From the NCBI RefSeq assembly GCF_003991155.1, contig NZ_CP031293.1: 64,000 nucleotides of DNA. One strand, given 5' to 3'. The DNA is from Escherichia coli. GTDB lineage: Bacteria > Pseudomonadota > Gammaproteobacteria > Enterobacterales > Enterobacteriaceae. The notes under the pieces were generated by a model. The model was not told the origin of the DNA, made no database searches, and saw only the letters and a list, made by a program, of their open reading frames with translations. Shown one piece after another: positions 24,914 through 25,426 of this stretch (positions within the stretch are counted from its first letter, which is position 1; each line of letters starts with the position of its first letter). The translations under genes were made by a program, and so were the position numbers.

Positions 24914-25426
24914 TTAGCTGAGGCGTTGAGGGCCAGCACGGATGCCTTGCGCCTGGTTTATCCAGACGGGCGTGCTGAATTTTGCTTGCGGGGTAAAATG
25001 CGCATAATCAATGCGATAACCCTTTCCAGACGGCGTGCCTTCCTGGGTCAACAGCGCGCTGAGCGTATCCAGTAATGCAAGATGTTGCGCCTGAAGAGGC
25101 AAAGATTCTTCAGCAACGGGCAGCGTTTGCGGTGCCATTGCGAAGGAAAGATGGCGGATTACCGTGCGAATGGCATGTTGATGCCAGTAATCAACGGAAT
25201 AGTTCGAATTCGGGCGGCGCGTGTTCGCTTCCAGCAAGGCCAATTGACCAAAGTTAACTTTGGCTGAAGGCTCGTGGTTGCGGGTTGTCGCTTTTGCGGG
25301 CGCGTTTGGTTCGGCGGCATTGCTGAGTGCAGGCAAACCTAAACTCGCCGCGACCATCCCTAATAAGAGATGCGGCCAGAAGTAGCGTTTACCAAACTGT
25401 CGCCAGCGCGTCAGTATTCCACTCAC
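24914..25426 (-). CDS. secM: secretion monitor (translation-arrest leader peptide regulating secA)
   Basis: 170 codons from apparent GTG start at 25424-25426 ((M)[16 protein letters not shown]...) to ...[21 protein letters not shown]. Confidence 0.85.
24929..24979 (-). promoter_or_regulatory. SecM ribosome-arrest motif (FxxxxWIxxxxGIRAGP)
   Basis: Encodes [17 protein letters not shown] near the secM C-terminus; matches the established arrest consensus. Confidence 0.8.

Follow-up and report, generated by a model that had tools for sequence, protein, structure and literature searches.

SecM is a secretion monitor that halts its own translation at Pro166 by means of its C-terminal peptide. An mRNA helix masking the ribosome-binding site of secA is opened by the stalled ribosome, and export pulling on the nascent chain releases the stall. 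The 17-residue motif of the K-12 protein is widely used in ribosome display, in force-profile analysis and for the preparation of stalled complexes.

The arrest motif, FxxxxWIxxxxGIRAGP, was defined by alanine scanning, in which S157, Q158 and Q160 were listed as non-essential (Nakatogawa & Ito 2002, as cited in PMC6340945). [quoted passage not shown] Two engineered exchanges thus concern the very residue that is altered in the DNA described here: S157A, from which S157 was classed as non-essential, and S157P (Woolhead et al. 2006), which blocks both compaction and stalling (both as summarised in PMC6340945).

In a 2.0 Å cryo-EM structure of the SecM-ribosome complex the side chain of Ser157 possibly forms a direct hydrogen bond to the ribose of A2062, and water-mediated links between Ser157 and A2062 were also seen (PMC10951299). 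Inside the tunnel, the seven residues from Thr152 to Gln158 adopt an alpha-helix, which in pulling simulations has to unfold before the contact of Ala164-Pro166 breaks (PMC10951299). The stability of this helix was proposed to set the force for stall release, and the helix was named the "regulator module" (PMC10951299). In other molecular dynamics (MD) work, Ser157 and Gln158 straighten in an intermediate stage of force-induced release, and fluctuations occur at Ser157, beside the hydrophobic contact between Ile156 and Ile162. In the literature that could be searched, S157 or Ser157 together with SecM returned structural and MD mentions only; no paper on the motif with Asn at 157 and no test of Asn at this position was found there.

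Results

The secM-secA Operon of the Window

The DNA analysed here (the window) is a stretch of 64,000 nt from Escherichia coli. The original prediction placed a SecM arrest motif at positions 24929-24979, with Asn at a position given as Ser for K-12. Translation of the minus strand yields this motif exactly, which confirms the coordinates and sets the strand. Reading the plus strand over the same positions gives a nonsense peptide and was rejected. The features considered in this study are:

24914-25426, minus strand: secM coding sequence, 170 codons plus stop (GTG start at 25424-25426, TAA stop at 24914-24916)
24929-24979, minus strand: arrest motif F150-P166, from the translation (motif as defined in PMC6340945 and PMC10951299)
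24956-24958, minus strand: codon 157, AAC (Asn), with the changed base at 24957, from the alignment with K-12
25025-25027, minus strand: codon 134, GGA (Gly; Glu in K-12), from the comparison of secM alleles
24917-24919, minus strand: codon 170, AGC (Ser; Thr in K-12), from the comparison of secM alleles
24853-24913, minus strand: secM-secA spacer, with an RNA fold prediction for its 3' part
22147-24852, minus strand: secA, the regulated downstream gene, from the ORF list and RefSeq comparison

The protein matches the NCBIfam SecM equivalog NF002799 with 228 bits (cut-off 100) and Pfam PF06558 with 192.7 bits (cut-off 25), and the identical DNA is annotated in RefSeq as secM, encoding WP_000014324.1. 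The secA gene lies on the same strand, 61 nt downstream of secM, and the gene order lpxC-secM-secA-mutT is that of annotated genomes. The motif FxxxxWIxxxxGIRAGP is complete, and residue 157 takes one of its "x" positions. All nine residues from the alanine scan are kept (F150, W155, I156, G161, I162, R163, A164, G165 and P166), in line with the earlier statement that the critical residues are present. Pro166 lies four codons ahead of the stop, and the motif is followed by QRLS and the stop codon. Judged by its sequence, the secM-secA operon of the window is an intact, canonical E. coli operon.

Upstream of the annotated GTG the frame remains open over 25427-25579 (minus strand), which leads to a mechanical ORF call of 221 aa. 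This longer ORF, starting from TTG at 25579, was rejected as secM, since in RefSeq and in K-12 the gene starts from the GTG at 25426 (513-nt CDS). Over-extended ORF calls of this kind seem to account for some SecM database entries of 215-225 aa.

Comparison with K-12 and Deposited Alleles

As reference we used K-12 MG1655 (NC_000913.3, positions 107400-108400, with secM at 107705-108217) and aligned 804 nt, from the end of lpxC to the start of secA, with the window. K-12 SecM (b0097, NP_414639.2, UniProt SECM_ECOLI) occupies the same slot between lpxC and secA, has the same length of 170 aa and is identical to the window protein at 167 of these residues; all nine arrest residues and the stall codon Pro166 are common to both. 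The three exchanges in the window protein are E134G, S157N and T170S, and the coding sequences differ at 12 nucleotides. Residues 1-133 are identical to those of K-12 SecM, including the part that acts as export signal (we take the signal peptide to be residues 1-37, from established knowledge of the K-12 protein). As SecM of the window is nearly identical to the K-12 protein, for which the mechanism is established, it would be expected to act in the same way.

Codon 157 is AGC (Ser) in K-12 and AAC (Asn) in the window, a single G-to-A transition at base 24957 (alignment column 700). Translation of secM from NC_000913.3 hence bears out Ser as the K-12 residue at this position, and Asn is absent from K-12. 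The original prediction had also put residue 157 outside the essential arrest residues, which agrees with the alanine scan as described in PMC6340945.

The system is known, and the N157 allele is already deposited and annotated. Proteins identical to the window SecM are found under WP_000014324.1 / UniProt A0A237NMK1 (e.g., in SMS-3-5, 2016C-3878 and CREC-544), with the annotation "secA translation cis-regulator SecM". At least 1,000 contigs encode exactly this 170-aa protein (A0A237NMK1_ECOLX, [quoted passage not shown]). A functional study of the WP_000014324.1 allele was not found in the literature that could be searched.

The Ser170 allele is widespread and occurs beyond the N157 clade. 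It was present in 15 of 15 non-K-12 genomes that were fetched with flanks, and Thr170 of K-12 is not common to many strains. In the secM-secA spacer, K-12 and the window differ by one A/G exchange at site 24882 (minus strand), where K-12 has A (TTATTAACTCC) and the window reads TTATTGACTCC; the A of K-12 is absent from many other strains.

Predicted mRNA Structure

An RNA fold was calculated for both alleles over 161 nt, beginning at codon 147 and ending shortly after the secA start. In both, CUCAACGCC (codons 166-169, about 24922-24930) is predicted to pair with GGCGUUUGAG (about 24861-24870), which lies just upstream of the secA ATG. The predicted helix covers the Shine-Dalgarno region of secA, and its sequestration by such a helix is predicted for K-12 and the window alike. 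The predicted minimum free energy is −42.0 kcal/mol for the window and −38.4 kcal/mol for K-12, with z values of −2.7 and −2.2, respectively. Within a predicted loop of five bases (AUAAA versus AUAAG), the polymorphic base of codon 157 comes last, and the predicted pairs are unchanged. Since the exchange alters no predicted base pair, an effect at the mRNA level is not indicated; we rejected action through mRNA structure as its main consequence, and the hairpin is itself a prediction.

Conservation of Residue 157

Natural variation at residue 157 was followed in representatives of SecM clusters at 90% identity (110 motifs recovered) and at 50% identity (63 motifs recovered):

Residue 157, 90% clusters (n = 110): Ser 109, Gly 1; entropy 0.07 bit
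Other positions, 90% clusters: I156 ("essential") 0.36 bit; 158, 0.33 bit; 151-154, 159 and 160, 0.98-1.82 bit
Residue 157, 50% clusters (n = 63): Ala 31, Ser 22, Val 4, Gly 2, Arg 2, Gln 1, Thr 1; entropy 1.79 bit
Other positions, 50% clusters: I156 1.76 bit; F150 2.68 bit; other x positions 2.0-3.4 bit

The motif finder demanded R-[AGS]-[GSPA]-P, and this requirement accounts in part for the invariance of residues 163-166. Among the close representatives the entropy of Ser157 is lower than that of the "essential" I156, and 53 of the 63 distant representatives have Ala or Ser. In the natural SecM proteins compared here, position 157 is thus among the most conserved positions of the motif. Asn was found at 157 in none of the 173 cluster representatives, which hide variants within their clusters, the window allele itself being hidden in cluster P0001.

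The distant Enterobacterales SecM proteins (50% representatives) share with the window W155, a hydrophobic residue at 156 and GIRAGP, and usually have a small or polar residue right after W-[ILV]. They differ from it at 157 itself, where they have mostly Ala or Ser and rarely V, G, R, Q or T, while the window has Asn. One of them has Gln, an amide residue related to Asn. Ala, which is unable to form the side-chain hydrogen bond, is common at this position in distant homologues, so that the bond of Ser157 is evidently dispensable there. Asn, being polar, could in principle retain a hydrogen bond.

Three entries deviate elsewhere or in other ways. A TPA entry of Citrobacter freundii (P0040), with Gly157 and Met158, is the only close representative without Ser157. 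Strain ETEC6335 (NZ_CP122588.1, 4554-5066) has an arrest motif with S151N and P153T, both at x positions. An E. coli entry on 3 contigs (P0131) has W155R and has lost an essential arrest residue; it could be a loss-of-arrest allele or a sequencing error.

Frequency of the N157 Allele

Allele frequencies were determined by counting exact matches to the 51-mer that encodes the arrest motif in 5,426 complete E. coli genomes. The 804-nt query matched 5,424 of these, with at least 97.8% identity among the matches listed. The N157 51-mer is present in 72 genomes (1.3%) and the S157 51-mer of K-12 in 5,296 (97.6%). About 58 of the 5,426 genomes have neither exact 51-mer, and other rare variants of residue 157 may sit there. 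Carriers of N157 come from humans, poultry, cattle, dogs, sheep, pangolin, wild birds, river water and wastewater on several continents. With an exact 51-mer in 72 complete genomes and the protein on at least 1,000 contigs, N157 is a real, inherited allele and not an error. Of about 5,420 secM matches, three fall on records that carry a plasmid label, probably mislabelled replicons or fragments of the chromosome.

Origin and Lineage of N157

A 20-kb query around secM was used to rank E. coli genomes by their similarity to the window. The first 39 genomes show 100.0% identity (to one decimal), 30 of them at full bit score, and are followed by groups at 99.9-99.8% and then at 99.5%, the latter including SMS-3-5. 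All of the nearest 60 genomes over the 20 kb are carriers, 54 by the exact 51-mer and six by WP_000014324.1. The 100%-identical group (AR Bank #0349, MRY15-117) is presumably ST457, in phylogroup F. SMS-3-5 is listed as phylogroup F, with ST354 (PMC11537424).

For a closer comparison, 8.2 kb from ftsQ to mutT were aligned for 10 carrier sequences (the window and 9 genomes) and six varied non-carriers. The 10 carriers, including strain LR-28, differ at 0-31 sites among themselves and at 73-113 sites from the non-carriers; apart from LR-28 these values are 0-10 and 77-111, respectively. Thirty sites are fixed between the first four carriers aligned (window, 2016C-3878, strain 20 and SMS-3-5) and the six non-carriers.

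Ser157 is the ancestral state, being found also in E. ruysiae, Escherichia sp. E3659, Citrobacter, Salmonella and Enterobacter. Because all carriers examined have one closely related haplotype, the data point to a single origin of N157 in a phylogroup-F subclade (the SMS-3-5 / ST354 haplotype group). We rejected recurrent independent origins, which would have been a hint of selection, since 15 of 15 individually checked carriers (9 with 10-kb flanks, 6 by secM accession) belong to one haplotype group. Homoplasy of N157 was not seen among these 15 and the 60 nearest genomes, 6 of the 72 carriers not being identified individually.

Apart from LR-28, every carrier examined combines S157N with E134G. 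Residue 134 belongs to a segment close to the tunnel exit, Pro132-Lys135, for which the cryo-EM map has poor resolution (PMC10951299). SecA of the N157 clade (WP_000905789.1) has A550E compared to the common allele WP_000905780.1, with the codon at about 23203-23205 on the minus strand, and this exchange, too, is absent from LR-28. The clade-specific amino-acid changes in the secM-secA operon are hence three: S157N and E134G in SecM and A550E in SecA.

LR-28 (NZ_AP027512.1, secM at 4554-5066) encodes a second N157 protein allele, WP_096944298.1, with S157N and T170S only, on a haplotype that is related to that of the other carriers but distinct from it. It groups with the carriers (22-31 differences to them versus 73-113 to non-carriers over the 8.2 kb), and its secM region is one base away from the window. 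This suggests that S157N arose before E134G and SecA A550E, which would be later additions in the main subclade, or else were lost from LR-28 by recombination. In bins 6000-7000 of the alignment, inside secA, LR-28 differs from the window at 22 sites, which may reflect recombination.

Discussion

Our comparisons make it probable that N157 is a derived, single-origin polymorphism that marks a clade and leaves the arrest functional. A single G-to-A transition would have led to S157N once, in a phylogroup-F subclade, and would have been inherited since. As all arrest residues are intact and one polar residue replaces another, the N157 protein most likely still stalls the ribosome and regulates secA, with stall strength or release force shifted modestly at most. 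Near-neutrality is favoured by the stable inheritance of the allele in a widespread and ecologically diverse clade. Tolerance at 157 is favoured by the classification of S157 as non-essential and by the distant homologues, in which Ala is most frequent at this position and Gln and Arg are found as well. The suggestion in the original prediction that Asn is probably neutral is partly supported by this: neutrality is plausible, but the constraint on position 157 was understated.

This constraint gives some weight to a different reading, which we consider rather unlikely, namely that S157N changes the contact to A2062 and/or the stability of helix 152-158 and so tunes the function of SecM. The lifetime of the stall or the release force would then shift and reset the set-point of secA, possibly together with E134G and SecA A550E; to this part, too, we assign a low probability. 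A measurable effect of N157 is conceivable because residue 157 is nearly invariant in close homologues, contacts A2062 and is part of the helix linked to the release force. Natural SecM proteins strongly conserve Ser (or Ala) here, the hydrogen bond and water-mediated contacts of Ser157 as well as the proposed role of helix 152-158 in determining release force are described in PMC10951299, and S157P abolishes compaction and stalling (PMC6340945). The three clade-specific exchanges within one operon would fit such tuning as well. On the other hand, alanine is reported as tolerated and S157 as non-essential in PMC6340945, and Ala, with no side-chain hydrogen bond, is commonest at 157 in distant homologues. 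LR-28 carries N157 without E134G or A550E, showing that the three changes are no obligate set, and a single origin confined to one clade would be expected from hitch-hiking or drift. If tuning did occur, N157 would be a natural variant of the "regulator module" that retunes the supply of SecA, and would be useful as a calibrated arrest peptide in force-profile work.

That S157N weakens or abolishes arrest, leaving carrier strains with defective secA regulation, is very improbable. Asn is unprecedented at the conserved position among the cluster representatives, and the motif is broken in rare E. coli entries such as the one with W155R, but N157 SecM retains all essential residues. Moreover, the allele has been kept without change in 72 complete genomes from diverse hosts and environments and on at least 1,000 contigs, which would be unlikely for a deleterious defect in regulation and argues against loss of function. 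An error of sequencing or assembly in the window can practically be dismissed as the source of the Asn codon: we found no support for it, the identical 51-mer occurs in 72 independent complete genomes, and the 20-kb flanks are 100.0% identical in 39.

The practical stakes of N157 are small, and the understanding of the SecM system is unchanged. With its single origin, the allele cleanly marks one haplotype group of phylogroup F. Regarding the motif itself, the textbook "x" at position 157 is misleading, since Ser or Ala is retained there in natural SecM proteins with about the same stringency as some "essential" residues, and this fits the recent high-resolution structure.
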